Source: Candidatus Omnitrophota bacterium (GTDB lineage: Bacteria; Omnitrophota; Gorgyraeia; Zapsychrales; JANLHA01). From it: 64,000 nucleotides of DNA. Shown piece after piece: positions 13,476 through 64,000 of this stretch. A program made the translations under genes and the position numbers. The first letter of the stretch is position 1; every line of letters begins with the position of its first letter. The stretch is taken from positions 659,136 to 723,135 of the forward strand of contig OY759724.1 of the NCBI GenBank assembly GCA_963662715.1, written 5' to 3'. The notes beneath the pieces were generated by a model, which ran no database searches, had not been told where the DNA came from, and saw nothing but the letters and a program-made list of their open reading frames with translations.

Positions 13476-13509
13476 CCTAAAATCCTTCCCGGAATAAATA
13501 CAGCGGAAG

Positions 13510-14235: not shown

Positions 14236-14270
14236 GTTCTCCCCTTTTTTAATAAATATCTCGACATGGC

Positions 14271-14675: not shown

Positions 14676-14697
14676 AACATCCTCTCGATCAATTATT

Positions 14698-20451: not shown

Positions 20452-20476
20452 AACGGCATACGCCTCCCTCAATATT

Positions 20477-20983: not shown

Positions 20984-21166
20984 ATCTCTCCGCGCCTCAT
21001 TTCTTCTGACGGATTTCTCCACCCCCCGGCATCCGGGCCGGGCAGAGAGCCTGTCGGAAATGCTCAAGCAGTACTCTGGCATAAGAGCCCTGTCATGTCA
21101 AATCAAAAATATAAGCCCCATAATTTATTCTCACCGACCTCTGCCTCTTGAATCCCGGGCGTGCCT

Positions 21167-23139: not shown

Positions 23140-23156
23140 GATGTCTCTTTCAGTCC

Positions 23157-24251: not shown

Positions 24252-24268
24252 TGCGTTCTCCGGTGACA

Positions 24269-25493: not shown

Positions 25494-25502
25494 AAACCCG
25501 CT

Positions 25503-26006: not shown

Positions 26007-26008
26007 CT

Positions 26009-26536: not shown

Positions 26537-26661
26537 AATGTGTCCCCCTTTTTGATATCTTAAAGATCCCGGGAGAACATCTCGTCCCGGGCATATTTCC
26601 TCTCCCGCGGCATTTACAGTCCGGGACAAAGAGCCTCGCGACAAAGCCGCTGTTATTTTTC

Positions 26662-27894: not shown

Positions 27895-27912
27895 AAATAA
27901 CGCCGTTTCCCC

Positions 27913-29622
27913 TTAGAAATTCTTATCATCCTTCGTCACTCGGATAATTTCACTGGCCGTGGTTTGGCCTTTAACAACCTTTTCCCAGCCGTGCTGCAGC
28001 AGCGACACCATACCTTTATCCCTGGCTTTCCTTGCGATCTGGCTGGCTGTGGCCCGGGACAAAATCATTTCGCGAATCTCTTCATTCAGCGAAAGAAACT
28101 CGTAAATACCTTCCCGCCCGCGGTATCCCGTGAAATGACAAGACTCGCATCCGTCCGCCTCGTAAATCGTCTGCGACGTTTCTATGCGGACCGACGCTCC
28201 GAATATCTTGAGCATGTCTTCCGTAACAGAAGCCGGTTTCTTGCATAAAGGACATAACGTGCGGACGAGTCTTTGCGCGATAAAACACTCCACGGAACTG
28301 CAAATCAGATAAGGCTCCACGCCCATGTCCACAAGCCGGGTTATCCCGCTGGCCGCGTCATTCGTGTGCAAAGTCGAGAAGACCAAATGCCCGGTCAGGG
28401 CTATCTGTGTCGCTATTTCGGCGGTTTCCTTGTCCCGGACTTCTCCGACCATCATGATGTCCGGGTCATGGCGCAGCATGGCTCTCAACCCCTGGCTGAA
28501 CGTCAAGTGTATCGCGGGATTAATCTGTATCTGCGTGATGCCCTTCAACTGATATTCAATAGGGTCTTCTATCGTAATGATCTTTTTATCCGGATGGTTG
28601 ACATGCGCGAGGCAGGAATACAATGTCGTGGTTTTCCCGCTGCCGGTCGGCCCCGTAACAAAGATAATCCCGTGGGGTTTTTGGATCAACTGCTCAAGCA
28701 AAGCCTGCTCTCTGGGGGACAACCCCAGATCATTCATATCATAAAGCCGGTTTGAACTGAGGATACGGATCACGACACTTTCGCCGAACTGGGTCGGCAA
28801 AAATGACACACGGAGATCCAGGTTGATTTCCCCGACCTTAACTTTAAACCGCCCGTCTTGGGGCAGTCTTTTCTCCGCGATGTTCAGGTTGGACATGATT
28901 TTGATCCGTGAATTGATGGCTTCCTTAAAATGCCAGATATTCATAGGAACTTTTGTATCATAAAGAATTCCGTCGACCCTGTACCGGACTTTCAAATCTT
29001 TTTCGTAAGGCTCAATATGGATATCCGTCGCACGATCCTTATAGGCCTCCAGCAGGATCTGGTTGATGAACTTCCCGATTGAGGCATCGGAATCGATTTG
29101 TTCGATATCATCAACGCCCTTATCCTGTTCGTGCACCGCCGCAAACGTTCCCTTCATTTGCGCGATCGTCTCGGCTCCGACCCCGTAATACTGCCTGATG
29201 GCCTCCAGGATATCTTGCTCCCGGGCCAAAACGGTTTTTATTTTTGAAGCATGCACCAAATGAACCCCGTCTTGAATATAAATATTGTGGGGCTGGGCGG
29301 TCGCAATGGTCAAAAGATCCTCTTCCGAATCATAATCGACCGGAATGACTTTATAATGAGTCGCAATGGTGACCGGGATTCTCTGCAGAATACTTTTCTC
29401 AATGCGGAGGAGTTTTAAATCAAGAAAATCCACCCCCAGATATTCCGCCAACAGTCGATACATCCTCTTCTCTTCTTTGATAAAACCCAAATTGAACAAG
29501 ACAACCCACAACAGCTCGTGTGTCGCCTGCTGCTTCAGCAAGGCCTCATCCAACTGCTGTTGCTGGATAAAACCCTGTTCAACAAGCAGTGCCCCGAAAT
29601 CTGTTTCTGTGATGATTTTCAT
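27913..29622 (-). CDS. gspE: Type II secretion ATPase GspE
   Basis: An N-terminal N1E-like domain is followed by Walker A VTGPTGSGKTTTLY, Asp-box, Walker B IMMVGEVRD and a tetracysteine motif (CPLCKKP ... CESCHFTGYRGR). An AAGGGA RBS precedes the ATG. Confidence 0.85.
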   Translation of the reverse strand: MKIITETDFGALLVEQGFIQQQQLDEALLKQQATHELLWVVLFNLGFIKEEKRMYRLLAEYLGVDFLDLKLLRIEKSILQRIPVTIATHYKVIPVDYDSEEDLLTIATAQPHNIYIQDGVHLVHASKIKTVLAREQDILEAIRQYYGVGAETIAQMKGTFAAVHEQDKGVDDIEQIDSDASIGKFINQILLEAYKDRATDIHIEPYEKDLKVRYRVDGILYDTKVPMNIWHFKEAINSRIKIMSNLNIAEKRLPQDGRFKVKVGEINLDLRVSFLPTQFGESVVIRILSSNRLYDMNDLGLSPREQALLEQLIQKPHGIIFVTGPTGSGKTTTLYSCLAHVNHPDKKIITIEDPIEYQLKGITQIQINPAIHLTFSQGLRAMLRHDPDIMMVGEVRDKETAEIATQIALTGHLVFSTLHTNDAASGITRLVDMGVEPYLICSSVECFIAQRLVRTLCPLCKKPASVTEDMLKIFGASVRIETSQTIYEADGCESCHFTGYRGREGIYEFLSLNEEIREMILSRATASQIARKARDKGMVSLLQHGWEKVVKGQTTASEIIRVTKDDKNF

Positions 29623-29666
29623 AATCCCTTCTTCATGTTTTCATCCGGCCCGCCTTAATCAGCCCT

Positions 29667-31586
29667 TTAAAAATGCCGGTCCTCCTGAGCCAGAACAATC
29701 GCCAGGTTCTTTTGGGCGCTCTCATAACGAGGATCAATACGCAAAGCTTCCTGGAAATGATAGACAGCATGAACGGTCTCTCCCTGTTTCATATATATAG
29801 CACCGACGCTGTTATGCACCAAAGCGTTATCCGGATGATAAATAAGAATCTCGGAAAAATGCTTGCGGGCCTTTTCCAGAGCCCCTTGCTTCATATATAA
29901 ATCTCCCAAAACACTATGAATATATAAACTGTCCGGTTGACCGGCCAACGCCTGCAGATACATTTCCCGGGCTTGCTCGGGCTTGTTCTGAAGCACATAG
30001 AAGTTCCCCAAATTCTTTAATGTTTCCGGATCACGACTGTCCAGAGCGCGGGCTTTCAGCAAATATTTCTCCGACAGCTCATATTGTCCTTCTTCCATAA
30101 GAAGAACACCGTAATTGCTGTTGGCTTGCGCATACTCAGGATTCAACCGCAGGGCCTGCTCATAAAAAACTTTTGCCCTTTTTAAGTCTCTTTCTTCATA
30201 AAATATATTCCCAAGATTATTATAATTTCGAAAATTTTCCGATTGAAACAACGCGGCATCCAGAAAATGCCTTTTCGCCGGCTCTTTTTTCCCGTCTTTA
30301 AGATAGGCCAATCCCAGGTTATAATGCGCAACCGGATGACGGGGGGCATGCCGCAAAACAAATCCCCATAAAGAATAGCCGTTGTTCCAGACCCGGCTCT
30401 GCTGAAAGGTCCCCAGCGCCATCCCTCCGATGATGAATACCGCGGCGACATTCAAGGATATCCTCTGAATCCTGTGGCTGGCCGTTGCGGAAGCCAGCCT
30501 CTCATACAGAATCCCGCATAGGATACAGAAGCCTAAACAGGGCAAATACATAAACCTGTCCGCCACGGGATTGAGCCCGGAGGAAACGGGATCCGTACGC
30601 AACAGGAAAAAAATCGACACCAGGTAAAACAGGAAAGAAAAATGCAGCCATTTGTTACAGTTTTTAGTGAGTAAAAAAAGGACCAGCAAGGCACATGCCA
30701 GCAAAGATAAAAAGTACGGCACATGGGTCCAGGACACAGGGAGCGGGTAAAAATAAAGCGGGGAGAGATGAACCGGGAGAAAGAATTTGTAAACATAAAA
30801 AACAAACGACCACAGCCATAATAAAATATTTACCGAGACCGGGCTGCCGGGGCTCCCCCCCATATTCAGCCTGTAGGTTATCCACGCTACGGGAACAGCG
30901 TATAACACAAAAGGGATTTTTTCCTTCAAAACTTTCCCGCACAATCTCCTGCCGCGGAACCAATCGCAAACAAGAAGCGCAAGAGGCAGACTCACCGCCA
31001 TAGGCTTGGACAGCATGCCCAGGAATCCGAATAATATAGCAGCATAGTAGGGTCTTCTTTCTCCTGTCCGGATAAAATTCATATACTGCACCAGAGCCAG
31101 CATATAAAAGAACGCGTACAGCACATCTTTCCGGGCGCTCATCCAGGCAACAGGTTCGACGTGTATGGGATGAAGGCCAAAAATCAGGGCAGCTGCACCG
31201 GCAGCCCTGGCGGATGCCCCCAGCTGAAGGGCGAACTTATAGACGAGACAAACCACGCCTATATGAAGCAGCAGATTATCGAGATGATAGACAATCGGAT
31301 TCTCTTGAAAAAAAAGATGTTCCAGGGAGAAAGACAGGATCGTTAACGGGATATATATATCGCAAACTGTACTCTTGAAGATCCGGACAATATTGCCCAG
31401 GCTGAATTGACGGGCCATTTGATTCCATTCAAAATTATTCTGATCATCCCAGACAAAATGCCCCGTTAAAACCGGCCCATAAGCGGCCAGTATCAGCACA
31501 ATCCCTAAAAAAAGCCGTCCCCGGCCGGGAGATAAAAAAGAAATCTTTTTCATAGAAAGACGCATAAAATGAATCGCAATCTGCAT
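29667..31586 (-). CDS. TPR-repeat membrane protein with GT-C-like (PMT/TMTC-like) N-terminal polytopic domain
   Basis: The N-terminal roughly 400 aa contains about 10 TM helices. It has a DD-type motif (HFVWDDQNNF) in the first periplasmic loop, as in GT-C glycosyltransferases of the PMT/ArnT type. The C-terminal roughly 230 aa consists of TPR repeats (NLGNIFYEERDLKRAKVFYEQALRLNPEYAQA...). The start could be ATG 31586 or ATG 31553. Confidence 0.55.
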   Translation of the reverse strand: MQIAIHFMRLSMKKISFLSPGRGRLFLGIVLILAAYGPVLTGHFVWDDQNNFEWNQMARQFSLGNIVRIFKSTVCDIYIPLTILSFSLEHLFFQENPIVYHLDNLLLHIGVVCLVYKFALQLGASARAAGAAALIFGLHPIHVEPVAWMSARKDVLYAFFYMLALVQYMNFIRTGERRPYYAAILFGFLGMLSKPMAVSLPLALLVCDWFRGRRLCGKVLKEKIPFVLYAVPVAWITYRLNMGGSPGSPVSVNILLWLWSFVFYVYKFFLPVHLSPLYFYPLPVSWTHVPYFLSLLACALLVLFLLTKNCNKWLHFSFLFYLVSIFFLLRTDPVSSGLNPVADRFMYLPCLGFCILCGILYERLASATASHRIQRISLNVAAVFIIGGMALGTFQQSRVWNNGYSLWGFVLRHAPRHPVAHYNLGLAYLKDGKKEPAKRHFLDAALFQSENFRNYNNLGNIFYEERDLKRAKVFYEQALRLNPEYAQANSNYGVLLMEEGQYELSEKYLLKARALDSRDPETLKNLGNFYVLQNKPEQAREMYLQALAGQPDSLYIHSVLGDLYMKQGALEKARKHFSEILIYHPDNALVHNSVGAIYMKQGETVHAVYHFQEALRIDPRYESAQKNLAIVLAQEDRHF

Positions 31587-31631
31587 ATGTTTATGACACG
31601 ATAAACCTGTTAATATATCCCTGCCGAACGG

Positions 31632-33203
31632 TTATTTCTCCTGAAGCTCCGGGATGAAAAAGATGATATACTCCGTACGGAGAATAAATCTGTTTTCACT
31701 GCGAAAGATAAAGCCAAAAAGGGGCAAATCGCCCAGGAGGGGAACTTTAGACGTTTTTTCAACTTCTTTTTCTCTCAACAATCCCCCCAGAATAATCACG
31801 TCCGCCCCGTCGATCGGCAGTTCCGCAGAAACCTGCGGCTGAAACGGCTTGTCTGAAGAAGCCTCCAGCGTCGGACGATTATCGGCCAGCCAGTGAAGAT
31901 GCGGACTCAGCCGGACAAGATATTTCTTTTCCGGAAGGGCATTGACCAGAATTTTCATCTTCATGGCAAACCCTTCATCATCCTTAAAATCCCCGGGGAC
32001 ATTCATCGTGTCCCAGCCCCATTCCTTCTCACTATTTAACTGGGAGACCCCGGAAAAATCGTTCAAATCAATAAGCTGGCCCGCGGCATCTAAGGCGTCT
32101 TTTAAGACAGGAAAATCTTCCTTCGTAATTGTGCCCAGGCTCAACCGGTTCTCCTCAGGTGAGCCGTTCTGTTGATCCCCTAAAATATCAAAATTTTTAT
32201 AATCGGAAACAATGGCGTCCCAGTCAATGCCCCCCTGATGTTCCTCATTCAGTTGAATTCTCGAAACCTGGATGCGCCAACGGACTTTAATAAGTTTATC
32301 CAGGTCCTGAATCATTTGCTCAATCTCCGATATTTTCTGCGCCGTATCCGTCACGGTTACGGAATTCGTGTCCCCGTCAAGAACAAGCTGCCCCAGATCT
32401 TCGGTGAGTGTCTTGGAGATCTTCTCCACGACAATGTCCGCCTTAACAAACTGGAATGAAAACACCTTTGTGACCAGGGGCGGGGTATCCCAGGACCGCA
32501 GCAAAGATTGCATTTGCTTCAAGGGTTCTTCGCTGTCCATAAGAATAAGCTGCTGGTTCTTTTCATCAGCGAAAAAATGTCCTTTAAGGCTCTTCAGCTG
32601 CACCAGATTCTTTTTCATGTCATCCACGGAACGGTATTCCAGTTTAATAACTTCAACCTGTGTTTCCGGGGCAAAAGGACGCCCCATCTTCTGTTCATAC
32701 TCTTCCCGGGAAACAACACGAATGACCTGCTCCTCCTGCATATAAGCCAAGTCACTCATCAACGTCACGACGGACAATAAATTCTCAAGGGAAACATCCT
32801 TTAAGCACAAAGTGATAAACCGAGTCGGCAGGACATCAGCTTCAATATTTAAATGGCTCTTTTCTGTCAAAACTTTTATGACATCCGACAAAGGGGTCCG
32901 GGCAAAATCCACTTCGGATATGACCCGATCCCACTCGTCTTCCATTCTCTTATCTTCTTCCGGGGCAGCGGCAGGACTGACAGCGACAGCCCGCTGGACA
33001 TCCAACTCTATGGTAAAAAATTCCTTCGTCTTACCCGGGGAAAGCCCCTCCTGTTCCGGAACAGTTTCGTTCATCGGGACCGGCAACGAATCGTCGGAAG
33101 AAACAATTTCATTTTTAAGCGATGGAATCCGGGCCCCGGATTCTTCCGCATACACTTCAGCCCCTAAAAAAAGGCAAACAAGAAAAAGACAAAAATATCG
33201 CAT
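31632..33203 (-). CDS. Divergent secretin-family outer-membrane protein (second secretin)
   Basis: A signal peptide (MRYFCLFLVCLFLGAEVYA) and N-domain-like segments are followed by a C-terminus alignable to the gspD secretin domain (GGIDWDAIVSDY ... KYLVRLSPHLHWLADNRPTLEAS ... DVIILGGLLREKEVEKTSKVPLLGDLPLFGFIFRS ... EYIIFFIPEL). Compare gspD: GVDWEAIVRDY ... IKLYVTPTIHRD ... TIVIGGLIKD ... VPVLGDVPLVGMAFRNRD ... EIVIFLTPKL. Confidence 0.55.
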   Translation of the reverse strand: MRYFCLFLVCLFLGAEVYAEESGARIPSLKNEIVSSDDSLPVPMNETVPEQEGLSPGKTKEFFTIELDVQRAVAVSPAAAPEEDKRMEDEWDRVISEVDFARTPLSDVIKVLTEKSHLNIEADVLPTRFITLCLKDVSLENLLSVVTLMSDLAYMQEEQVIRVVSREEYEQKMGRPFAPETQVEVIKLEYRSVDDMKKNLVQLKSLKGHFFADEKNQQLILMDSEEPLKQMQSLLRSWDTPPLVTKVFSFQFVKADIVVEKISKTLTEDLGQLVLDGDTNSVTVTDTAQKISEIEQMIQDLDKLIKVRWRIQVSRIQLNEEHQGGIDWDAIVSDYKNFDILGDQQNGSPEENRLSLGTITKEDFPVLKDALDAAGQLIDLNDFSGVSQLNSEKEWGWDTMNVPGDFKDDEGFAMKMKILVNALPEKKYLVRLSPHLHWLADNRPTLEASSDKPFQPQVSAELPIDGADVIILGGLLREKEVEKTSKVPLLGDLPLFGFIFRSENRFILRTEYIIFFIPELQEK

Positions 33204-46700: not shown

Positions 46701-48845
46701 CTATCGGTCCAGGGCCTGCATCGCCGTGGTAAACTCCGAAAAATCCGTTATCGGCTCCCGGCACGTCTCTTGTTGGCAGATATAAACGGCAGGACAAGCC
46801 TGTTTATGTTTTTTAGCGTAAAAAAAGGCTTTCAAAAATTCCTGTTTTTCCGTTTCCCCGGCACAAGGAGGCACCAGGGACACAACAGCATGAGGAGCAA
46901 AGGATTGATTCAGATGATCCAGCATGGCCTGCACCTCGGGGTTCTCTTGCCTCCCGATGAAAATAATTTCCTGCCGCGGGCCCAACAATAAATCACAGGC
47001 AACAAGCAACTGCGGATAAGTCGCCGGCGCTTCCTGGATGACAGAGGAAAAAAACCGGCAGAGCTTTTCGGCCTTGGCATACCATTCGGTTTGACCGGTA
47101 AATTGAGAAAGCCGGATCAGGTCCCAAGCGGCTAACGCATTGCCGGAAGGAAGAGCTCCCGAGTAAATATATTTCTGCCTGTCGATGATTTGCGGATCGT
47201 CCTGACCTGTCAGGAAAAAACCTCCCTCGGAAGGATCCTCAAAGAGTTCGATCATGCTCTCTGTCAGCATGTGCGCCTTCTGCAGATATTCCACTTTAAA
47301 TGTGGCCTGATAAAGTTCAATGAGACCATAAATAAAAAAAGCATAATCGTCTAACATGCCCAGTACGGCCGCCTCTTGATCCCGGTACCGGTGAAAAAGC
47401 CGTCCGTCATCCCGGACGAGGTTTTTGAGCAGGAAATCAGCCGTCTGTTCGGCGCTTCGGGCATATTGAGGTTTGTTAAGAACTCTCGCCCCTAACGAAA
47501 GCGCGGCCATCATAAGCCCGTTCCAATCGGCCAAGATCTTGTCGTCCCGGTGCGGACGGGGCCTCTGAGCCTGTGCCCCCCGGAGTCTCTTCCGTGCAAG
47601 ACAAAGGCATTCTTCAATCTCCTCGGGCCTCTTTCGAAAATGACGGGCTGTCTGCAGCAAGTCCTGCTCTATCATCAGAATGTTCTTCTGTGGAAACGCG
47701 CCTTTAGGACCGCTGCGGATGTTCCCTGATGTTTTTATCCCGTAATAATAGGCAAAAATCTCTTTTTCTTCCTTGGAAAGGCAGGAATCTATCTCATGAA
47801 CATCCCATAAATAATAGGCCCCTTCTTCTAACACATCCACAGGTGGAGAAGCAGAGGCGTCCCTGCGGGGCAAACTGTCGGCATCTTCCGCGGAATAAAA
47901 CCCGCCCCCTTCATCATGTAAATTCCCCAATACATATTCTATGGTTTCTTCGGCCACCCGCTTATAATCCATCTGCCCGGTGACCTGATAAGTTTCCAGA
48001 TAAGCGACGGTCAACAGGGCCTGGTCGCACAGCATCTTTTCAAAATGCGGCAGCTGCCAGAATTGATCCACGGAATACCGGTGAAACCCGCCCCGCAGAT
48101 GATCCCGGATGCCTCCCCGGCTCAAAGCCTGGAGCGTCCTGTTAACCATGAATAAAGCTTCCTGGTTACGGGAGCGGCTCCAATACCTCAACAGAAAGGA
48201 AAGGCTGTGCGGCTGGGGGAATTTCGGCCGGATACCAAACCCCCCGTTTTTTCTGTCAAAATGACTCTCCATGGACTGAAAAACTTTCTGAAGCAAAGAG
48301 GCTTCCACCGGGGAAGGCTCCGGGGAGGGCCGTGCCTCTTTCAGCAAGGCCATAATTTTATCGGCTGTCTGGTCGACCTTCCCTCTTTCCTTCTCCCACA
48401 CCTCTTTTACGGATAACAGGACCTCTTTAAATCCGGGACGTCCGCCCTGCCGGTCCAAAGCGAAATAGGTCCCCGCAAAAAAAGGACGGCCGTCAGGTGT
48501 CAGGAAAAGATTCATCGGCCACCCCCCGTTTCCGGCAAGAAGCATGACGGCCTGCATATAGTAATTATCGATGTCCGGACGCTCCTCCCGATCAAGCTTG
48601 ACAGGAATAAAATGCTGGTTAAGAATCCGGGCCACGTCCACGTCCTGAAAAGACTCCCTCGCCATAACATGACACCAATGGCACGTTGAATAGCCGATCG
48701 ATAAAAAAACCGGCCTGCTTTCCGCCTGAGCCTTACGGAAAGCTTCTTCTCCCCAAGGATACCAATCAACCGGGGTCCCGGCGTGCTGTTGCAAATAAGG
48801 GCTTTTTTCTCCGCCCAGACGGTTGCGGCGGACATTCTCTTCCAT
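46701..48845 (-). CDS. Thioredoxin-domain protein of the YyaL/DUF255 family (thioredoxin-like + six-hairpin glycosidase-like fold)
   Basis: [52 protein letters not shown] is the DUF255 thioredoxin-like N-terminus. The long alpha/alpha-toroid-like remainder is about 715 aa. Start set at the ATG (MEENVRR). Confidence 0.7.
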
Positions 48846-49000
48846 AATGTTCCTCTTGCTCTGCGGGAGGGACAGGGAAGCCAACAATCTTATACAAAGA
48901 GGTGCCGGCCTTCTGCCGCACGATCATAAACATATCGATAAATAACAAACGGCAGAGAAAATCTTCTATCCCTGCCGTCAACGTCCCAACCGGATAATGA

Positions 49001-53074: not shown

Positions 53075-55021
53075 TTATTCCTTATTTTCTTCTTTATTCT
53101 TCTCCTCTACAACTTGAGCCGTTATTTTCGACGGGGCCTGTTCATAATGGGAAAACTTCATGGAATAGCTGCCCCGGCCCCCTGTCATCGAACGCAAATC
53201 TGTAGCATACTTGAACAATTCCGACAAAGGGATCTGCGCTATGATCGCTTCATTCTTGCCTTTGGCCTCCTGCCCCTGAATTCTTCCCCTCCGGGAGCTG
53301 ATGTCCCCGGAAATCTGACCGATGAAGTCACTGGGGATGACGATCGTCACTTCCATAATCGGTTCAAGTAAAATAGGCCCGGCCTGTTTCACGGCCTCTT
53401 TCAAGGCCATAGCCCCGGCGATCTGAAAAGCCATATCGGAAGAATCAACGGCGTGGAAGGAACCGTCAACAAGATTAATCTGAATATTAATGATCGGAGA
53501 TTTGGCGATAACGCCTTCGGTAATCGTCTGTTTAACGCCTTTTTCTACGGAAGGGATATAATTCTTGGGGATAGCCCCGCCGAAAATCTTATTAACAAAT
53601 TCATATTCTTCGCCGTCCCGGGGGATAGGGGCTATTTCCAGATCCACGTCCCCGTATTGCCCCCGCCCGCCAGACTGTTTTTTATATTTGTAACGGTACC
53701 GGGCCGTCTTGGTAATGGTTTCCCGGTAGCGGACTTTCGGCGTCCCCAGTTCCACATCCAGATTATACCGGCTTTTCATGCGGTCCAGAATGACCTTCAG
53801 GTGCAAATCCCCCATCCCGGAGATAATAAGCTCTTTTGTCTCGGTGTCTCGCTCGATCTGCAGAGTATGGTCCTCCTCACACATCCTATGCAAACTCGTT
53901 GATATCTTTTCCTCATCCGCCCGCGTTTTAGGCTTGATGGATGCCGACAAAGACGGCGCAGGGTAAGCGATGGGAGCAAAGGCATATTTTTCACCGGAAG
54001 CGGTGATGGTATCTGAAACATGGCTGTTTTTCAATTTCGGCAATGCGACAATATCCCCGCACTCCGCCTGGACAACTTTTGTCTGCTCCTTCCCCTGCAA
54101 AAGGCTGATGGTGCTGACATGTTCCTTGGTCTTGTTGGTGACGTTATAGCAGTCCGAATTGGCCTGCATTGTCCCGCTGACGATCCGAAACAGTGACAAC
54201 TGTCCAAGATGCGGATCAAAAAGAGACTTAAAAACAAAGCCGGAGAAAGGCCCTTCTGATGAAAGAGAGACTTCTTTTTCCTCCTCGGAATCGGAAAGCA
54301 GACCTTTAAATGCGGGCCGTTCAACCGGGGAAGGGAGATAAGCGATAACAGCCTCCAGCAGAGCTTCAACGCCTTCATCATTTAAAGCGCTGCCGCAAAT
54401 GACAGGGTAAATTTTCGCATCAACGACAGCCTGCCGCAAAACACCTTTAACATCATCCGGGGATAACGTCCCTTCCTCTAAATATTTCTCTAAAAGTTTG
54501 TCATCTGATTCGGCAATAGCCTCAATAAATTCCGAAGACTCAAGATCAATCTTAACGGCCTTATTGGACAACTGCTCCTGGATAGAAGCGATGGCTTCAT
54601 CCACTTTCGCTTCTTCTTTGTCAGTTTTGTTAACATAAATAAGACACGGCAATCCCATGGCCTTTAATCTGTCCCAGGCATCCTCTGTCCCGACTTCCAC
54701 GCCGTTAACAGCATCGACCACCAGGATCGCGGCGTCCGTCGCCTGAATGGCGGACACGGTTTCACCGACAAAGTCCATGTACCCGGGAGTATCAATCATC
54801 TGTATCTGATGATCTTTATAATTCACTCTCAGGAAACTTGAATTGATGGATATCTTGCGTTCCTGCTCGTCTTCATTATAATCACTTACGGAGGTGCCTT
54901 GCATGACATCCCCTTTTCGTGTCGTTGCCTTGCAAAAGAACAAGATGCTTTCGGCCAAAGTGGTTTTCCCGCTATGGGCATGCCCGACCAAGGTGATATT
55001 TCGTTTTAATTTTACATCCAT
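53075..55021 (-). CDS. Elongation factor G-family translational GTPase (EF-G paralog)
   Basis: G1 GHAHSGKTT, G3 DTPGYMDF and G4 NKTDK, followed by domains II-V-like sequence. Total length is 648 aa, shorter than canonical EF-G. GGGGAAGG RBS. Confidence 0.7.
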   Translation of the reverse strand: MDVKLKRNITLVGHAHSGKTTLAESILFFCKATTRKGDVMQGTSVSDYNEDEQERKISINSSFLRVNYKDHQIQMIDTPGYMDFVGETVSAIQATDAAILVVDAVNGVEVGTEDAWDRLKAMGLPCLIYVNKTDKEEAKVDEAIASIQEQLSNKAVKIDLESSEFIEAIAESDDKLLEKYLEEGTLSPDDVKGVLRQAVVDAKIYPVICGSALNDEGVEALLEAVIAYLPSPVERPAFKGLLSDSEEEKEVSLSSEGPFSGFVFKSLFDPHLGQLSLFRIVSGTMQANSDCYNVTNKTKEHVSTISLLQGKEQTKVVQAECGDIVALPKLKNSHVSDTITASGEKYAFAPIAYPAPSLSASIKPKTRADEEKISTSLHRMCEEDHTLQIERDTETKELIISGMGDLHLKVILDRMKSRYNLDVELGTPKVRYRETITKTARYRYKYKKQSGGRGQYGDVDLEIAPIPRDGEEYEFVNKIFGGAIPKNYIPSVEKGVKQTITEGVIAKSPIINIQINLVDGSFHAVDSSDMAFQIAGAMALKEAVKQAGPILLEPIMEVTIVIPSDFIGQISGDISSRRGRIQGQEAKGKNEAIIAQIPLSELFKYATDLRSMTGGRGSYSMKFSHYEQAPSKITAQVVEEKNKEENKE

Positions 55022-55138: not shown

Positions 55139-55588
55139 CTACTTAAATATGACTTCCCCGGATTCGACATCAAGGGCAACATGATGCTGTCCGGCGTCCT
55201 GGGCGGAATTTTCCCGCAACCGAATGTTCTTTTGCTTTAAAATTTCTATAGTTGAATTTAAATTCTTTATATATTCCGGGTCATTCTCATCATGCGGGAC
55301 ATTCTCTCCCGTAACAAGCGCCACTTCAATACTTTCCCTGTCCGCCCCTATAAGAGCCATATCTTCGACCATTTCCTCAATCGCCTCTGCCGCGCTCCGC
55401 AATGTTGACGAATGCCATTTTTTATCCATACGGCCGGAAAAATACAACGCATGCGCTAAACCGCCGATCTTATGATTAGCATCATAAGCTAAAATAACCA
55501 AACAGGCCCCGTTCGTATCAGATTCCAGAACAACCTCACCCTGCCCCGCCATAATCTCGCCTCGATGTACGTCAATTATCCTTTTCAC
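55139..55588 (-). CDS. cheD: CheD-like chemoreceptor glutamine deamidase
   Basis: MKRIIDVHRGEIMAGQGEVVLESDTNGACLVILAYDANHKIGGLAHALY aligns with the CheD N-terminus and catalytic Cys region (VKVGIAEMAVSK ... GSCVAVALYD ... IGGLAHIMLP). A GTG start with a strong AAAGGAGGA RBS is retained. Confidence 0.55.
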   Translation of the reverse strand: MKRIIDVHRGEIMAGQGEVVLESDTNGACLVILAYDANHKIGGLAHALYFSGRMDKKWHSSTLRSAAEAIEEMVEDMALIGADRESIEVALVTGENVPHDENDPEYIKNLNSTIEILKQKNIRLRENSAQDAGQHHVALDVESGEVIFK

Positions 55589-56143: not shown

Positions 56144-57550
56144 TTACAATAATTCCTGCTGTGGGCCGGCTGAATCTTGCTGCGGACGCGCCATAAAAAT
56201 CAGGGCCAAGACGGCCAAAGGGAAAAAATGCAGAATCAGGCGGGAAAGCGTCGTATCTCTCTGCTCAATCCAGATATAAGCGTTTGTGCAAAGAAACAGA
56301 AGAAACAGAATAACAAAAAACAAGGTCATGCAAAGGCAAAACCATTTGAAAAAAGGATGAATTTTTGAGCGGAACGAAAAAAACGAGCTGAAAACAAGCA
56401 AACTCCATATGACGTTCCAATTCCCGCTCCAGAATAATTCCTGAATAAGCTTGCTGAAAATAAACGGAATCCGGGCCAAATTCTGCCGACCGAGTTCATA
56501 AACAACCCCGACAGACATGCCTTGTCTCATAAATTTAAACAACGGGAAGAGCAGAGATATCCCCAAACACGGGAAAATAAAGTTTAAAGCCGTTTTCATG
56601 CGACGGCCGGACAAAGATTTGTCCGAAAACAGCAGGCCAACGAATAAAGCTCCGTAAACCAAAAGATAGGCCATGCCCTCCCGTTTTGTAAATGTGGATA
56701 TCCCGGCGAATACCCCGGCGAGGACCAAAAACCGGGTCTCTTTCTCCGCATACCACAAGAAAATCATCATAAGGGTGACACAGTTATAAACCATCAGAGT
56801 AAAATCCATATATCCTAATGAAGCATGCAGGGCAAAAAGATTGGATGTAAACAACAAGCCGACACTCCACAAAGCCCGTCTGCTGTTTAAAAAGTAATTC
56901 ACAAATTCATAGTGAATCACAATATAAGAGAGAAGATAAAAAGGGATAAAAACTTTAACAATCTGGTCACTCCAATAACCTAAATTCAAAACCATCCATG
57001 TCTGCAAGAGAGAGACATGCAGAGGATACCCCCGGTACAGAATATCCTGCGGTAAAACAATATTTTTGTTAAAGAAAAAAACTTTGGCATTAAGAGTGTT
57101 AATTTTCAAGGGGTCAAATCCATAAACGGGAATATGAAAGGCGCGCCAGAAAATATAAACACACTGAAAAACCACAAAAAGGATAATAATGATGTCTAAG
57201 AATTCCCAATAAATCTCATAAGGAGATGGTCGGGATAACTCTTTCCGCACCAAATCCTCATTAACAGCACCTTGCTGTCCCTGCCCAGACCGTTTCTTAG
57301 AAACACTCCTTATGATTCCTATAAAAATCAAGCCAAGCAAGAAAAGATGAAGCCCCTGCCCGGCAAACGAACCTCCCAGCATATTCCAGGATAACATTAC
57401 AATCGTCAAAATCCCGGTGCCCAGAATAAACGAGAGGGATATCTTAGCGGGGACCGTCAGCTCCTCCCTGGGAAAAAGAAAAGACAAAGAAACAGACCCT
57501 ATAAGCCAGGGGATAAAAAGAGCAATACCTATCGCAAAGCCCGGGATCAT
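56144..57550 (-). CDS. Hypothetical polytopic membrane protein
   Basis: 468 aa with at least 11 hydrophobic segments. The start ATG overlaps the upstream gene stop (ATGA). Confidence 0.4.
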   Translation of the reverse strand: MIPGFAIGIALFIPWLIGSVSLSFLFPREELTVPAKISLSFILGTGILTIVMLSWNMLGGSFAGQGLHLFLLGLIFIGIIRSVSKKRSGQGQQGAVNEDLVRKELSRPSPYEIYWEFLDIIIILFVVFQCVYIFWRAFHIPVYGFDPLKINTLNAKVFFFNKNIVLPQDILYRGYPLHVSLLQTWMVLNLGYWSDQIVKVFIPFYLLSYIVIHYEFVNYFLNSRRALWSVGLLFTSNLFALHASLGYMDFTLMVYNCVTLMMIFLWYAEKETRFLVLAGVFAGISTFTKREGMAYLLVYGALFVGLLFSDKSLSGRRMKTALNFIFPCLGISLLFPLFKFMRQGMSVGVVYELGRQNLARIPFIFSKLIQELFWSGNWNVIWSLLVFSSFFSFRSKIHPFFKWFCLCMTLFFVILFLLFLCTNAYIWIEQRDTTLSRLILHFFPLAVLALIFMARPQQDSAGPQQELL

Positions 57551-58290
57551 CGCCGCCCTCCCTGTCTTACAGCCATGAGACTCTTGTGATCATAAGGAGA
57601 AAACCAGTGAAATCCGGGAGGCAGAGCCTTAAAAGGCTCATCTTTCATAAACATAATGAGAACGTCAGGGTCACTGATATCGGGTTTTAAAATATCGATA
57701 GGGTAAAGGAAATACGCAAGTTCTGTTTTCCAGAACAACCCCAGGCCCTTCTCAAGATACAAATCACTTAAAAGACGTGCCCGGGCATACCCTGATATGT
57801 GTTGATGACAGTAGCGGGAAAATCCATAGGTTTGTTTATAAATTTGGGCATATTTATTCTGAACATCTTCGCCTTTGAAATGCTGATATTCAAAGGCGAA
57901 TTGTCTAAGCTGAAATTTCACCTGGAAAAATGTTAATATAAAAAGCATAATCCAGGCCCCTGTCTTGAGTGTCTTTAATCCCTTTCGGAGAAAAAAGCGG
58001 GGGGAATTGTCTGCATGACGCCTGTTTCTGTAAGCCAGCCAGAGGGAAGAAAAAAAGATCAAAGCATACCCATACCACAAAATATTCAACGGGCCAATCT
58101 GACGATAGAGACAACGGTTGGGCGTCATGGCATAAAAAGTATCAATGAAGGAAACCATGGGAGAAGACGTATGCCAGGTAAAAGGAAAAAAAACAACAAA
58201 CAAAACAAACAACACAATTCCGACTCCCAGCTTGATTGTGCGGGGTAACGTTTTCTGATCTTCTTCTTTATTATGGAAAGCAGCTGCCAT
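57547..58290 (-). CDS. Hypothetical membrane protein
   Basis: 247 aa with several TM helices. It is co-transcribed (4-nt overlap) with 56144..57550. Confidence 0.4.
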   Translation of the reverse strand: MAAAFHNKEEDQKTLPRTIKLGVGIVLFVLFVVFFPFTWHTSSPMVSFIDTFYAMTPNRCLYRQIGPLNILWYGYALIFFSSLWLAYRNRRHADNSPRFFLRKGLKTLKTGAWIMLFILTFFQVKFQLRQFAFEYQHFKGEDVQNKYAQIYKQTYGFSRYCHQHISGYARARLLSDLYLEKGLGLFWKTELAYFLYPIDILKPDISDPDVLIMFMKDEPFKALPPGFHWFSPYDHKSLMAVRQGGRR

Positions 58291-58788
58291 TGATACGGCC
58301 TTTAAAATTTAAAAATTTTCGAGATCATTATCAACCACCCATATCTTTTAGGCTAATTCACCTTAAAGGAAAAAACCTTAAAGTAAAATAAACAACTTCT
58401 ATGATATTCATTTTAAAACGTTCTTACCAGTAAAATTAATACTATTTAGGAAGCCGCTTGAGAAATACATTCTTAAAGTGTTTAGGGCATCGGGGCCTAA
58501 TTAATTTTTAAAGGAACTTCCAAGTATTTCACCTCTTAATATATTTATATGATATGTTTAACATATTGTTGATGTTAAAAATAATAGACACACATCCATG
58601 CATACCTGTCCAGGACTGTCCTAGACTGAGCAAAAGAGGCAAGAACAGAAAAACACGAATTATGAACAAATATTTCACAAAACAATAAATTTACTCCATT
58701 AATTAATATTTGGTACATTTCTTGCTTGTAATTAATACGTTAACTTCGCATCACAGCAAAAATATATATCAATTTAGGAGGTTTTTCA

Positions 58789-59577
58789 ATGAAACAGTCA
58801 CTTAGAAACATCAGCATCATCTTTTTAGCGGTTATAGGAGTTGTGGCTCTGACCAGCAGCCCGGCTTCAGCACAAGCTGCCGCAACAATTCCAGTTGACC
58901 TGGAATTGAGTTTGGTTATTGACATTTCCGGAAGTGTCAGCGCTTCTGAATATGCAACACAAATCCAGGGTTATGGAAATGCTTTTAAAAGCGCTGCTGT
59001 TATCAATGCCCTTGATAACGGACAATACGAACAAATCGCCGTTAATGTCGTATTCTACAGCGGTAGCGCCGCGGAAGTTGTGGAATGGACTCTCGTTGAC
59101 CAATCCAACTCCTCTGCTTTTGGGGACACGCTTATTGCTTTAGCCGACCCAAACAATCTGGGCAGCTTGACCGGTGTGGCCAATGCCATTGATACAGCCG
59201 ACAATCTGTTTTTCACCAATATCTACGAAGGTGACAGACTTGTTATGGATGTTTCCGGTGACGGAATTGAAAACGTAGACAGCGTAGCAGACGTTTTAAG
59301 TGCACGCGATATCGCCCTGGCCTTGGGAATTGATGCCATCAACGGTCTTGTTATTGATGATGAAACCGGTGTCGTGGATTTTTATGCTGACAACGTCGTT
59401 GGAGGAGACGGGGCTTTCTTACTCGTTGTTGATTCTTTTGATGATTTGCAGCCGGCTATCATTGAAAAACTCGCCAGAGAAATCGGCGATGATCCTGTTG
59501 TCCCTGAACCAGCCACTCTTTCCCTGTTAGGCTTTGGCTTAATGGGATTAGCTGGTTTCAGAAAAAAGAGAAGCTAA
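58789..59577 (+). CDS. von Willebrand factor A-domain protein carrying a PEP-CTERM sorting signal
   Basis: A signal peptide is followed by the vWA MIDAS motif DLELSLVIDISGSVS and the TADN / DGIENVDS motifs. The C-terminus VPEPATLSLLGFGLMGLAGFRKKRS has the PEP motif, a hydrophobic helix and a basic tail, which together define PEP-CTERM. Strong TAGGAGG RBS. Confidence 0.75.
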   Translation: MKQSLRNISIIFLAVIGVVALTSSPASAQAAATIPVDLELSLVIDISGSVSASEYATQIQGYGNAFKSAAVINALDNGQYEQIAVNVVFYSGSAAEVVEWTLVDQSNSSAFGDTLIALADPNNLGSLTGVANAIDTADNLFFTNIYEGDRLVMDVSGDGIENVDSVADVLSARDIALALGIDAINGLVIDDETGVVDFYADNVVGGDGAFLLVVDSFDDLQPAIIEKLAREIGDDPVVPEPATLSLLGFGLMGLAGFRKKRS

Positions 59578-59893
59578 TATAATTATATATATTTATGAAA
59601 CTCCACGGCCTCACGGCCGTGGTTTCTTAACTATTTTGACTGTGCAAACGCAGCTAAAATTCTATCTGCGTTTGTCCTCGGTCTTCCCGGCCTTGATATT
59701 CGATGTATCGCTTTATCGATTCTTCGTCGGCTCCAACCGTTGACACAAAATACCCTGCTGACCATATCCTGAGTTATCCCGCCATAAATACAATAAACAG
59801 CATATCGCACAAACCCATGGGAACAAAATATCGCAGGGAAAGCATTCACAGCAAGGCAGGATGACGACAAGGCATGATTCACTGCACGGGATT

Positions 59894-62800
59894 TTATTCT
59901 GACACACAATCATAACACTGAATAGCAGATTGGCCATCCTGTCCCGAATAGGTAAACAAAATAATACTTGTTTTTAGACACTGCTCTGTTTCCTCACAAG
60001 AAGAACAGTCAACATACAAGCCCTCTCCCACACAACGCTTATCTCCTTTTTCAAACCTGCATTCGAAGCAAGCTTCTCCGCTGGACAATGTCTTGGCAAA
60101 AGTGCAGTTAGGACAATTTTTGCACTCTTTCTCCGTTAAATAACCTATCGAACTGCAGGTTTCCTTCTTTTTCTGACATATATAACATTGTTCTCCTTGT
60201 TTAGTCCTTTTTGTCCCTTCACATTCCTTTTTCGAATCGGATTTGCAGGCAAGACATTCTTGCTCCGTTAACAGACCGAGATCCGAACAAAGCTGTGGTT
60301 TCTCCTCGCAGCTGTAACACTGCCGGCCTTCTTTGGTCTTCTGATCTTTCTTACACTGATTCTTAGGATCCTCTTCACACAGAGAACATTCCTCTTCAGA
60401 AATTAAACCAAGATCGATACATTCTTCCGGTTTATCCATACAGCCGTAACATTGTTTCCCTTCCCTGGTCCTCTGATCTTCGACACATTCCTTCTTCGGG
60501 TCTTTGGTGCAAATCGCGCACTCTTCTTCAGCCAGCAATCCAAGGTCGACGCATGCTTCCGGCTTGTCCATACAGCTGTAGCATTGCCGGCCTTCTTTAG
60601 TTTTCTGATCCTCGACACATTCTTTCTTCGGGTCTTTGGTGCAAATCGCGCACTCTTCTTCAGCCAGCAATCCAAGGTCGACGCATTCTTCCGGTTTGTC
60701 CATACAGCTGTAGCATTGCCGGCCTTCTTTAGTCCTCTGGTCTTCGACACATTCCTTCTTCGGATCTTCGACACATACCGCGCATTCCTCCTGTGACAGC
60801 AGACCTAAATCTTCGCACTCTTCCGGCTTATCCATACAGCTGTAGCATTGCCGGCCTTCTTTAGTCTTCTGGTCTTCGACACATTCCTTCTTCGGATCTT
60901 CGACACATACCGCGCATTCCTCCTGTGACAGCAGACCTAAATCTTCGCATTCTTCCGGCTTGTCCACACAACCGTAACATTGTTTCCCTTCCCTGGTCTT
61001 TTGATCCTCGACACATTCCTTCTTCGGGTCTTCGGCACATACCGCGCATTCCTCCTGTGACAGCAGACCTAAGTCTTCGCATTCTTCCGGCTTGTCCATA
61101 CAGCTGTAGCATTGCCGGCCTTCTTTAGTCTTCTGGTCTTCGACACATTCCTTCTTCGGATCTTCGACACATACCGCGCATTCCTCCTGTGACAGCAGAC
61201 CTAAATCGACGCATTCTTCCGGCTTGTCCACACAACCGTAACATTGTTTCCCTTCCCTGGTCTTTTGATCCTCGACACATTCCTTCTTCGGGTCTTTGGT
61301 GCAAATCGCGCACTCTTCTTCAGCCAGCAATCCAAGGTCGACGCATTCTTCCGGCTTGTCCATACAGCTGTAGCATTGCCGGCCTTCTTTAGTCCTCTGG
61401 TCTTCGACACATTCCTTCTTCGGATCTTCGACACATACCGCGCATTCCTCCTGTGACAGCAGGCCTAAATCTTCGCATTCTTCCGGCTTGTCCACACAAC
61501 CGTAACATTGTTTCCCTTCCCTGGTCTTTTGATCCTCGACACATTCCTTCTTCGGGTCTTCGGCACATACCGCGCATTCCTCCTGCGACAGCAGGCCTAA
61601 ATCTTCGCACTCTTCCGGCTTATCCATACAGCTGTAGCATTGCCGGCCTTCTTTAGTCTTCTGGTCTTCGACACATTCCTTCTTCGGATCTTCGACACAT
61701 ACCGCGCATTCCTCCTGTGACAGCAGACCTAAATCTTCGCATTCTTCCGGCTTGTCCACACAACCGTAACATTGTTTCCCTTCCCTGGTCTTTTGATCCT
61801 CGACACATTCCTTCTTCGGGTCTTCGGCACATACCGCGCATTCCTCCTGTGACAGCAGACCTAAATCTTCGCATTCTTCCGGCTTGTCCATACAGCTGTA
61901 GCATTGCCGGCCTTCTTTAGTCCTCTGGTCTTCGACACATTCCTTCTTCGGATCTTCGACACATACCGCGCATTCCTCCTGTGACAGCAGACCTAAATCG
62001 ACGCATTCTTCCGGCTTGTCCACACAACCGTAACATTGTTTCCCTTCCCTGGTCTTTTGATCCTCGACACATTCCTTCTTCGGGTCTTTGGTGCAAATCG
62101 CGCACTCTTCTTCAGCCAGCAATCCAAGGTCGACGCATTCTTCCGGTTTGTCCATACAGCTGTAGCATTGCCGGCCTTCTTTAGTCCTCTGGTCTTCGAC
62201 ACATTCCTTCTTCGGGTCTTTGGTGCAAATCGCGCACTCTTCTTCAGCCAGCAATCCAAGGTCGACGCATTCTTCCGGTTTGTCCATACAGCTGTAGCAT
62301 TGCCGGCCTTCTTTAGTCCTCTGGTCTTCGACACATTCCTTCTTCGGATCTTCGACACATACCGCGCATTCCTCCTGTGACAGCAGACCTAAATCTTCGC
62401 ATTCTTCCGGCTTGTCCACACAACCGTAACATTGTTTCCCTTCCCTGGTCTTTTGATCCTCGACACATTCCTTCTTCGGGTCTTCGGCACATACCGCGCA
62501 TTCCTCCTGCGACAGCAGGCCTAAATCTTCGCACTCTTCCGGCTTATCCATACAGCTGTAGCATTGCCGGCCTTCTTTAGTTTTCTGATCCTCGACACAT
62601 TCCTTCTTCGGATCTTCGACACATACCGCGCATTCCTCCTGCGACAGCAGACCTAAATCTTCGCATTCTTCCGGTTTATCCATACAGCTGTAGCATTGCC
62701 GGCCTTCCCTGGTCTTCTGATCTTCGACACATTCCTTCCTCGGGTCTTCGACACATACCGCGCATTCCTCCTGTGACAGCAGACCTAAGTCTTCGCATGC

Positions 62801-64000
62801 TTCCGGCTTGTCCATACAGCTGTAGCATTGCCGGCCTTCTTTGGTCTTCTGATCTTCGACACATTCTTTCTTCGGGTCTTCGACACATACCGCGCATTCC
62901 TCCTGTGACAGCAGACCTAAATCTTCGCATGCTTCCGGCTTATCCACACAGCTGTAGCATTGCCGGCCTTCTTTGGTCTTCTGATCTTCGACACATTCTT
63001 TCTTCGGGTCTTCGACACAAATCGCGCACTCTTCTTCAGCCAGCAATCCAAGGTCGACGCATGCTTCCGGTTTATCCACACAGCTGTAGCATTGCCGGCC
63101 TTCTTTAGTCTTCTGATCTTCGATACATTCCTTCTTCGGGTCTTCGACACATACCGCGCATTCCTCCTGTGACAGCAGACCTAAATCTTCGCATGCTTCC
63201 GGCTTATCCACACAGCTGTAGCATTGCCGGCCTTCTTTGGTCTTCTGATCTTCGACACATTCTTTCTTCGGGTCTTCGACACATACCGCGCATTCCTCCT
63301 GTGACAGCAGACCTAAATCTTCGCATGCTTCCGGTTTATCCACACAGCTGTAGCATTGCCGGCCTTCTTTAGTCTTCTGATCTTCGATACATTCCTTCTT
63401 CGGGTCTTCGACACATACCGCGCATTCCTCCTGCGACAGCAGGCCTAAATCAATACATTCTTCCGATTTATCCATACAGTTGTAGCATTGCCGGCCTTCC
63501 TTGGTCTTCTGATCCTCGACACATTCCTTCTTCGGGTCTTTGACACATACCGCGCATTCCTCCTGTGACAGCAGACCTAAATCGACGCATTCTTCCGGTT
63601 TATCCATACAGCTGTAGCATTGCCGGCCTTCTTTAGTTTTCTGATCCTCGACACATTCTTTCTTCGGGTCTTCAGCACATACCGCGCATTCCTCCTGTGA
63701 CAGCAGGCCTAAATCTTCGCATGCTTCCGGTTTGTCCATACAGCTGTAGCATTGCCGGCCTTCTTTGGTCTTCTGATCTTCGACACATTCTTTCTTCGGG
63801 TCTTCAGCACATACCGCGCATTCCTCCTGTGACAGCAGGCCTAAATCTTCGCATGCTTCCGGCTTGTCCATACAGCTGTAGCATTGCTGACCTTCTCTGG
63901 TCTTTTGATCTTCGACACATTCCTTCTTCGGGTCTTCGACACATACCGCGCATTCCTCCTGCGACAGCAGGCCTAAATCAATACATTCTTCCGGCTTGTC
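59894..64000 (-). CDS. Giant acidic cysteine-rich tandem-repeat protein, 3' portion (5' end beyond window)
   Basis: An open minus-strand frame runs from the window edge to the stop at 59894. The body is about 30 copies of a 44-aa unit CYSCMDKPEECEDLGLLSQEECAVCVEDPKKECVEDQKTKEGRQ with six Cys per unit in two CxxC pairs. The final roughly 180 aa are degenerate repeats ending ...QCYDCVSE. The track start at 63871 is only an internal Met, because identical repeats continue to 64000. Confidence 0.7.
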   Translation of the reverse strand, partial: DKPEECIDLGLLSQEECAVCVEDPKKECVEDQKTREGQQCYSCMDKPEACEDLGLLSQEECAVCAEDPKKECVEDQKTKEGRQCYSCMDKPEACEDLGLLSQEECAVCAEDPKKECVEDQKTKEGRQCYSCMDKPEECVDLGLLSQEECAVCVKDPKKECVEDQKTKEGRQCYNCMDKSEECIDLGLLSQEECAVCVEDPKKECIEDQKTKEGRQCYSCVDKPEACEDLGLLSQEECAVCVEDPKKECVEDQKTKEGRQCYSCVDKPEACEDLGLLSQEECAVCVEDPKKECIEDQKTKEGRQCYSCVDKPEACVDLGLLAEEECAICVEDPKKECVEDQKTKEGRQCYSCVDKPEACEDLGLLSQEECAVCVEDPKKECVEDQKTKEGRQCYSCMDKPEACEDLGLLSQEECAVCVEDPRKECVEDQKTREGRQCYSCMDKPEECEDLGLLSQEECAVCVEDPKKECVEDQKTKEGRQCYSCMDKPEECEDLGLLSQEECAVCAEDPKKECVEDQKTREGKQCYGCVDKPEECEDLGLLSQEECAVCVEDPKKECVEDQRTKEGRQCYSCMDKPEECVDLGLLAEEECAICTKDPKKECVEDQRTKEGRQCYSCMDKPEECVDLGLLAEEECAICTKDPKKECVEDQKTREGKQCYGCVDKPEECVDLGLLSQEECAVCVEDPKKECVEDQRTKEGRQCYSCMDKPEECEDLGLLSQEECAVCAEDPKKECVEDQKTREGKQCYGCVDKPEECEDLGLLSQEECAVCVEDPKKECVEDQKTKEGRQCYSCMDKPEECEDLGLLSQEECAVCAEDPKKECVEDQKTREGKQCYGCVDKPEECEDLGLLSQEECAVCVEDPKKECVEDQRTKEGRQCYSCMDKPEECVDLGLLAEEECAICTKDPKKECVEDQKTREGKQCYGCVDKPEECVDLGLLSQEECAVCVEDPKKECVEDQKTKEGRQCYSCMDKPEECEDLGLLSQEECAVCAEDPKKECVEDQKTREGKQCYGCVDKPEECEDLGLLSQEECAVCVEDPKKECVEDQKTKEGRQCYSCMDKPEECEDLGLLSQEECAVCVEDPKKECVEDQRTKEGRQCYSCMDKPEECVDLGLLAEEECAICTKDPKKECVEDQKTKEGRQCYSCMDKPEACVDLGLLAEEECAICTKDPKKECVEDQRTREGKQCYGCMDKPEECIDLGLISEEECSLCEEDPKNQCKKDQKTKEGRQCYSCEEKPQLCSDLGLLTEQECLACKSDSKKECEGTKRTKQGEQCYICQKKKETCSSIGYLTEKECKNCPNCTFAKTLSSGEACFECRFEKGDKRCVGEGLYVDCSSCEETEQCLKTSIILFTYSGQDGQSAIQCYDCVSE
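60400..64000 (-). repeat. Near-identical 132-bp in-frame tandem repeat array with higher-order periodicity of about 792 bp
   Basis: The DNA motif ccggcttgtccatacagctgtagcattgccggccttctttagtcttctggtcttcgacacattccttcttcgg... recurs every 132 bp. Sets of six units recur at 792-bp spacing (antisense track ORFs 60861/61653 and 61125/61917 are offset by exactly 792). Confidence 0.8.

Follow-up and report, generated by a model that had tools for sequence, protein, structure and literature searches.

The window analysed here, a stretch of 64,000 nucleotides of contig OY759724.1 from a Candidatus Omnitrophota bacterium, ends in an array of 132-bp tandem repeats on the minus strand, and the locus raises the question of how such an array evolves and what kind of protein it encodes. 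According to our analysis, the region is the middle and the 3' end of the gene of a secreted, very acidic protein that consists of at least 31 six-cysteine mini-domains. Purifying selection acts on this coding array, which gains and loses units in register and has recently undergone a tandem duplication of a block of 6-7 units; export of the product, a homogenised array centre with diverged edges and a partner gene encoding an NHL beta-propeller protein are found in its orthologues. The account of array evolution at the DNA level is regarded as largely established, whereas at the protein level the architecture is seen in the orthologues and the role is proposed with graded confidence.

Unit order and block duplication in a coding array

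Tandem Repeats Finder (TRF) returned an indel-free 132-bp period for positions 60420-64000 (27.1 copies; 87% matches), and on the minus strand the units are translated in one frame that is open from the stop codon (59894-59896) to base 64000 and comprises 1,367 uninterrupted codons; the repeat array described in a sequence-only reading of this DNA is therefore real. Since no further stop codon is met up to base 64000, the 5' part of the repeat gene and additional array must lie outside the window. Units were numbered from the window end, with unit k extending from position 63998-132k to 64129-132k; units 1-27 (60434-63997) are the closely related core of the array (example of a core unit, 44 residues: KPEECEDLGLLSQEECAVCVEDPKKECVEDQKTKEGRQCYSCMD), and three bases remain between unit 1 and the window edge. 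The following units 28 to 31 differ from the core units by 33-47, 56-64, 84-91 and 99-111 nucleotides, respectively, and unit 31 represents the special terminal module of the family ('...TSIILF...QCYDC'). No further copies of the six-cysteine module were found elsewhere in the window.

The near-perfect DNA identity that had been ascribed to the units was not recovered: pairwise unit identity averages 86.7% (17.6 differences per 132 nt) and the longest exact repeat measures 269 bp; many unit pairs show 0-5 differences per 132 nt, and unit subtypes differ by 15-27%. Between units, the proportion of differing synonymous sites (pS) is 0.44 and that of nonsynonymous sites (pN) 0.06, and 27 of the 48 variable positions of the unit fall on third codon positions. 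The resulting pN/pS of 0.14 at such a high pS indicates that the units are translated and constrained by purifying selection on the protein; the high pS and the predominance of third-position variation also indicate that the subtypes are old in comparison with the duplication of a block that is described in the following.

Based on the unit-by-unit difference matrix, three subtypes were distinguished: A (...VCVED...KEGRQCYSCMD), B (...VCAED...REGKQCYGCVD; units 12, 17, 19 and 23) and C (...AEEECAICTKD...; units 14, 15, 21, 26 and 27), the latter two corresponding to variants already quoted in the sequence-only reading. The subtypes succeed each other as B A C C A B A in units 12-18, as B A C A B A in units 19-24 and as A C C in units 25-27; units 1-11 are A-like variants without any block order. 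At a lag of six units, units 15-18 differ from units 21-24 by 0-1 nucleotides per 132 nt; at a lag of seven units, the same number of differences separates units 12-13 from units 19-20, and the likeness of units 25-27 to units 13-15 is looser (1, 5 and 8 differences). When the unit order was shuffled, a run of four consecutive unit pairs with no more than one difference at a single lag arose in a fraction of 5e-5 of the cases; taken by itself, the lag-6 mean gave P=0.007, which becomes 0.13, and thus not significant, once the best of 13 lags is allowed for. When the two blocks that comprise approximately units 12-18 (block I) and 19-24 (block II) were aligned, only 5 scattered mismatches in 854 bases (99.4% identical) and one exact 132-bp gap were observed; block II directly abuts block I, with 62 bp shared between them. 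This alignment and the abutment point to one recent tandem duplication of 6-7 units, a one-unit insertion or deletion, and an older, partial third copy (units 25-27), so that the array within the window contains about 2.5 copies of the block, with the register shifted between 6 and 7 units. The earlier suggestion of a recent multi-unit expansion by unequal recombination is consequently supported: adjacent blocks of almost identical sequence are one in-register unit apart, and the subtypes within them are far more divergent. Such a block duplication is ordinary repeat dynamics and a common way for arrays of this kind to evolve.

Two alternative views of this DNA-level picture have to be considered. 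The whole array might be built from a satellite-like, six-unit super-unit of 792 bp, and self-identity by lag does reach its highest value at 792 bp (0.898); however, this value lies barely above those at 264 bp (0.886), 924 bp (0.883) and 132 bp (0.870), multiples of 792 bp are no better than other lags (1584 bp: 0.872; 2376 bp: 0.875), and lags of 12 and 18 units are not enriched. The blocks are indeed more alike than adjacent units (99.4% versus about 87% between neighbours), as expected for a higher-order repeat, but no constant block period runs along the array: segments of lag 6 and lag 7 coexist and the first eleven units lack order. The proposed six-unit organisation thus holds locally, for units 15-18 and 21-24, and fails array-wide; a regular higher-order repeat is refuted within the window and has to be called scarcely credible, while the 5' part of the array beyond it could hold more block copies. 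Mis-assembly or collapse of repeats could also have produced the duplicated block, the order of the units or their copy number, and the concern about short-read assembly raised by the sequence-only reading proved justified: all seven non-spanning contigs (a Logan contig and, from relatives, the contigs L006, L007, L008, L009, L010 and L011) stop inside the array, the 4.2-kb Logan contig, which is 100% identical to positions 56268-60509, breaking 76 bp into unit 27, and the sole other spanning assembly, contig L005, contains at least 6 frameshifts within its array. Yet the frame in the window runs without interruption through all units, the scattered substitutions and the one exact in-frame unit that separate the blocks are atypical of assembler collapse or duplication, and the size of the source contig (3.36 Mb) suggests a long-read assembly; an artefact is judged improbable.

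Orthologous loci and concerted evolution

The orthologous gene is present in full on L005, a 215-kb contig of the European Nucleotide Archive (ENA) that was reached via the protein P0007. Its product starts with the signal peptide MIQSRQHAFRMFICVLGIACFFLFSCQGVRPVNA, continued by FDL..., and an approximately 85-residue cysteine-free stretch; then follow 8 diverged modules, about 25 modules that are identical at the protein level, 4 diverged modules and a tail like that of the window protein (66% identity over the last 179 residues), amounting to about 37 modules compared with at least 31 in the window. The gene (L005 7279-12544) is distributed over five called open reading frames (ORFs) by its frameshifts, most of which are located at the 'CIDLGLL' part of the unit; as the unit sequence is retained in every piece, the frameshifts resemble consensus errors of long reads more than decay. 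L007, L008, L010 and L011 share the N-terminal plan of L005, and L006 and L009 share its C-terminal plan; L006 and L007 are two halves of one gene in one metagenome-assembled genome (MAG). As judged from the N-termini with an AxA-type cleavage motif (L005, L007, L008, L010, L011 and the protein P0020), the product is predicted to be exported via a Sec-type signal peptide. Anchoring as a lipoprotein was considered, but the candidate lipobox-like cysteine is not conserved and is absent in P0020 (a canonical lipobox occurs in the distant relative P0018).

Within arrays, nucleotide identity amounts to 86.7% in the window, 96.1% in L005 and 95.5% in L006; between the arrays of these three loci it is 67-84%, with a separate protein consensus for each lineage. 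The edge modules, by contrast, show position-by-position conservation among genomes, with 66-70% identity between units 28-31 and the C-termini of L005 and L006. The lineage-specific consensus indicates concerted evolution, and the combination of a homogenised centre with orthologous edges is the classic signature of unequal crossing-over that homogenises the centre of an array; the array evidently turns over. In complete genomes of Omnitrophota, the tandem nucleotide repeats in the very long genes of the phylum have been reported to be mostly dissolved (10.64898/2026.06.07.730766), and strongly homogenised arrays would be somewhat unusual beside that picture; the preprint makes no mention of a cysteine-rich module.

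The gene order around the orthologues is conserved: a ZIP transporter, a DUF218 protein, a small ORF, a secreted NHL beta-propeller protein (692-713 aa) and the repeat gene are followed by a convergent VWA-like gene with a PEP-CTERM signal and by the genes of a 237-aa and a 466-aa membrane protein. The stop codon of the NHL gene overlaps the start of the repeat gene in L004 and L005, and the NHL gene is located directly upstream of the repeat gene in L007, L008 and L011. The NHL proteins of the relatives are 46-86% identical; as the overlap is shared by L005 and the distant L004, whose NHL proteins are 48% identical, the pairing is old and conserved among these relatives.

The six-cysteine module and the proposed extracellular chain

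Each unit of the window shows the cysteine spacing C-x10-C-x2-C-x7-C-x11-C-x2-C. The windowed part of the protein contains 18% Glu, 13.6% Cys (186 residues) and 11% Lys and is devoid of His and Trp; its pI is 4.4 and the net charge is -7 per unit. In a set of 299 unique modules, 292 (98%) possess exactly six cysteines, with the second and third spaced as CxxC in 58%, CxxxC in 20% and CxxxxC in 22%; Gly commonly follows the first and precedes the fifth Cys, and the latter is commonly followed by an aromatic residue. AlphaFold2 predicted one unit, from an alignment of 140 modules, with a mean predicted local distance difference test score (pLDDT) of 87 and with helices at residues 5-8 and 13-19 and a beta-hairpin at 26-32/38-43; for three units a pLDDT of 94.7 and a predicted template modelling score (pTM) of 0.63 were obtained, with the same secondary structure elements in every unit. 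The even, invariant number of cysteines, the variable spacing of one pair, the signal peptide and the confidently predicted, defined fold speak for three putative disulfides in each module rather than for a zinc site. Curated families gave no match, either for the window units (Pfam-A: a spurious Polo_box_3 hit of 30.1 bits, below the cut-off of 34.2; NCBIfam: none) or for the L005 product and P0018; no structural match was found in the PDB, and no description of the module or of its pairing with an NHL protein was found in the literature.

A census of relatives, performed as a profile search with the window units and the modules of P0001 against 1.84 billion representative proteins, yielded 30 proteins at E<=1e-3, of which P0027 and P0028 were excluded as probable false positives because they look like unrelated Cys-containing repeats, leaving about 28 relatives. 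In the architecture designated type 1 (P0001-P0004, P0006, P0008, P0012, P0015-P0017, P0019 and P0030), a signal peptide is followed by 14-32 six-Cys modules, which are strongly diverged, and an S8 peptidase forms the C-terminus; these are large, secreted proteins of 1,325-2,438 aa with a hydrophobic '...VTYVVIIIETP...' segment between modules and peptidase, and the combination of module and S8 peptidase is likewise undescribed. No NHL gene was present upstream of the type 1 gene at the single locus examined (L003, gene 10001-15673). Proteins of type 2, to which the window protein belongs, consist of modules only and end in the special module '...G(L/V)ILF...CYxC'. Two partial 'hypothetical protein' fragments from contigs of 1.2 and 1.7 kb of one Omnitrophica MAG, P0005 (MCA9399872.1) and P0010 (MCA9399512.1), are the C-terminal and N-terminal ends of probably a single type 2 gene that was split by its array. 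In a distant relative, P0018 (364 aa), a canonical lipoprotein signal is combined with four modules and with an acidic spacer bearing short repeats of its own; here, too, the gene follows that of an NHL propeller, with overlapping stop and start codons (L004 6225-9409).

The explanation that we consider best, and reasonably probable as a whole, combines a homogenised tandem-repeat core with a chain of exported six-Cys modules that would serve as an extracellular stalk or scaffold. In this model, the array evolves by in-register unequal homologous recombination or slippage between the 132-bp units; a block of 6-7 units was duplicated in tandem recently, with gain or loss of one unit afterwards. 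The same process maintains the similarity of units inside each genome, allows divergence from one lineage to another, and makes the locus unassemblable from short reads. The product would be a chain of at least 31 (about 37 in the spanned relative) independently folding 44-residue modules, each with two helices, the first short and the second longer, and a beta-hairpin that are presumably held together by the six invariant cysteines in three disulfides, exported via the Sec-type signal peptide. The resulting string of strongly anionic, disulfide-stabilised beads (net charge -7 for each central module) may form an extended structure whose length is set by copy number, and would be made together, and probably act, with the secreted NHL beta-propeller protein whose gene lies immediately upstream in the orthologues.

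Several points weigh against this interpretation. The copy-number comparison draws on one spanning assembly per lineage, and for the window locus, the protein's N-terminus, the full number of copies and the gene upstream all lie beyond the window edge. The rod-like geometry of the chain is proposed, the AlphaFold2 result having been used for its confidence and secondary structure; the putative disulfides are deduced from the cysteine count and the variable C2-C3 spacing, in a lineage that is probably anaerobic and in which extracellular disulfides would be less certain. The tie between repeat protein and NHL protein is suggested by gene order, and no cell-surface anchor was found: the protein is without sortase, autotransporter, PEP-CTERM or other sorting signal.

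The cysteine-rich composition invites two other readings of the protein. The modules might bind zinc or another thiophilic metal via CxxC...CxxC and constitute a high-capacity extracellular or periplasmic buffer, for which the high cysteine content, the two CxxC motifs per unit, the strongly acidic character and the presumably anaerobic way of life of the lineage would speak; but the first cysteine pair is variable and not of the fixed CxxC spacing of a zinc ribbon or knuckle, neither Pfam nor the PDB contains a zinc-ribbon match, six cysteines in nearly all modules are what three pairs would require, histidine is absent, and the confident helix-plus-hairpin prediction is unlike metallothionein, so that we hold metal binding to be unlikely. 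The protein could also be a polyprotein precursor that is cleaved between the units to release 44-residue cysteine-stabilised peptides with a defensin-like toxin or signal function, given the many near-identical units, the fusion of the module to an S8 peptidase in the larger relatives and the combination of helix, beta-hairpin and six cysteines, which is reminiscent of cysteine-stabilised alpha-beta peptides; the helical CxxxC bonded to a strand CxC of the alpha-beta defensins was not found in the module, and little probability is assigned to this reading. A more far-reaching form of the preferred stalk or scaffold model, in which an undescribed extracellular fold has been amplified to an adjustable polyanionic stalk that forms, with a co-translated NHL partner, a dedicated contact or attachment device, is regarded as doubtful. 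If it were true, a host-dependent lineage could reach or bind partner cells, minerals or metal cations, with its reach or capacity tuned by recombination within the array.

Surroundings of the array and comparison with known systems

The features of the array and its immediate neighbours are compiled in Table 1. Downstream of the repeat gene, a convergent VWA/PEP-CTERM gene occupies the same position in L005 and L006, with weak sequence similarity to the window gene; the products of the two following genes (57547-58290 and 56144-57550) are about 52% identical to the 237-aa and 466-aa proteins of L006. A 15-bp tandem repeat (1.9 copies, 58360-58388) precedes the DUF1194/PEP-CTERM gene in the intergenic region. 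More distantly, positions 18670-33203 harbour a gene cluster similar to those of type II secretion or MSHA-type pilus systems (secretins 18670-20514 and 31632-33203; PilM/PilN 21697-23172; T2SSF 26662-27894; T2SSE ATPase with MshEN domain 27913-29622; TPR proteins), which could export proteins such as the repeat protein. Other genes near the array encode a DUF255 thioredoxin-domain protein (46701-48887), an EF-G paralogue (648 aa, 53075-55021) and a small CheD-like protein (55139-55588); the thioredoxin-domain protein might be relevant to its cysteine-rich neighbour, though it is located 11 kb away.

Table 1. Features of the repeat gene and adjacent loci in the window.
Feature	Position	Strand	Basis
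27 complete, closely related 132-bp (44-aa) units	60434..64000	-	TRF, translation, unit table, difference matrix
Block I, approximately units 12-18, 986 bp, one extra unit compared with block II	61597..62582	-	alignment, lag analysis
Block II, approximately units 19-24, 854 bp	60805..61658	-	alignment, lag analysis
Partial, older third block copy, units 25-27	60434..60829	-	difference matrix
Units 28-31, four progressively degenerate C-terminal modules	59906..60433	-	translation, difference matrix
Final three codons (VSE) and TAA stop of the repeat gene	59894..59905	-	translation
GC-rich terminator-like hairpin between the convergent repeat and PEP-CTERM genes, consensus match only	59603..59622	.	
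DUF1194 (VWA-like) protein with PEP-CTERM sorting signal, convergent neighbour	58789..59577	+	
Two genes (247 aa; 468-aa PMT_2-like membrane protein), synteny markers	56144..58290	-	

The significance of the locus lies in the conservation of the repeat gene and its NHL partner across several Omnitrophota-like lineages and in the clean natural example that it provides of a coding array that undergoes concerted evolution while purifying selection acts on it, in a phylum with an almost unknown surface biology. As each of the non-spanning contigs is cut at the array, the copy number, and probably the very existence of the gene, will be missed or fragmented in most MAGs. The module and the conserved pair of repeat and NHL genes are undescribed. 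Modules of about 40 residues with six cysteines that are arranged in tandem in exported proteins are known from EGF-like, TSP and granulin domains, the Myxococcus cysteine-rich repeat and the cysteine-stabilised alpha-beta defensins; the rarity of the present module (about 28 relatives among 1.84 billion proteins), its confidently predicted fold and the lack of a structural match make it a candidate for a new domain family. Its true homologues, the S8-peptidase proteins, share the signal peptide, the six cysteines per module and a related terminal module, but they differ from the window protein in that their modules are strongly diverged instead of forming a homogenised array and in their C-terminal subtilase domain.

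With regard to the dynamics of the array, multi-unit blocks that are closer to each other than neighbouring units, a homogenised centre, diverged edges and a lineage-specific consensus are features in common with satellite DNA, rDNA and surface-protein gene arrays; in contrast to higher-order arrays of the satellite type, however, the array has only a few block copies with a shifted register, is protein-coding and displays a low pN/pS ratio. The closest concept to the repeat protein as a whole is that of the Periscope Proteins (SasG/Aap, Rib/alpha C and the SHIRT domains of Sgo_0707; PMC8201768, PMC9704523). Both are single polypeptides in which many tandem repeats of the size of a domain follow each other; these repeats are very similar in DNA and are predicted to fold individually. 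In both, homologous recombination has been proposed to change the copy number, and short reads fail. The repeat similarity that characterises the class is also found here, with a mean nucleotide identity of 86.7% for the 27 units and of 95-96% for the arrays of L005 and L006. On the other hand, the module is shorter (44 residues compared with approximately 50-165 in the Periscope class), cysteine-rich and of an unmatched fold, neither a surface anchor nor a functional head domain could be identified, the gene is accompanied by a conserved partner that encodes an NHL propeller, and the organism is an uncultured Omnitrophota-like bacterium. Membership of the repeat protein among the Periscope Proteins is not established as regards attachment to the cell surface, the shape of a rod and variation of the repeat number between strains; the likeness, as deduced from sequence and AlphaFold2 prediction, is that of a long, recombining chain of repeats that are predicted to fold individually.

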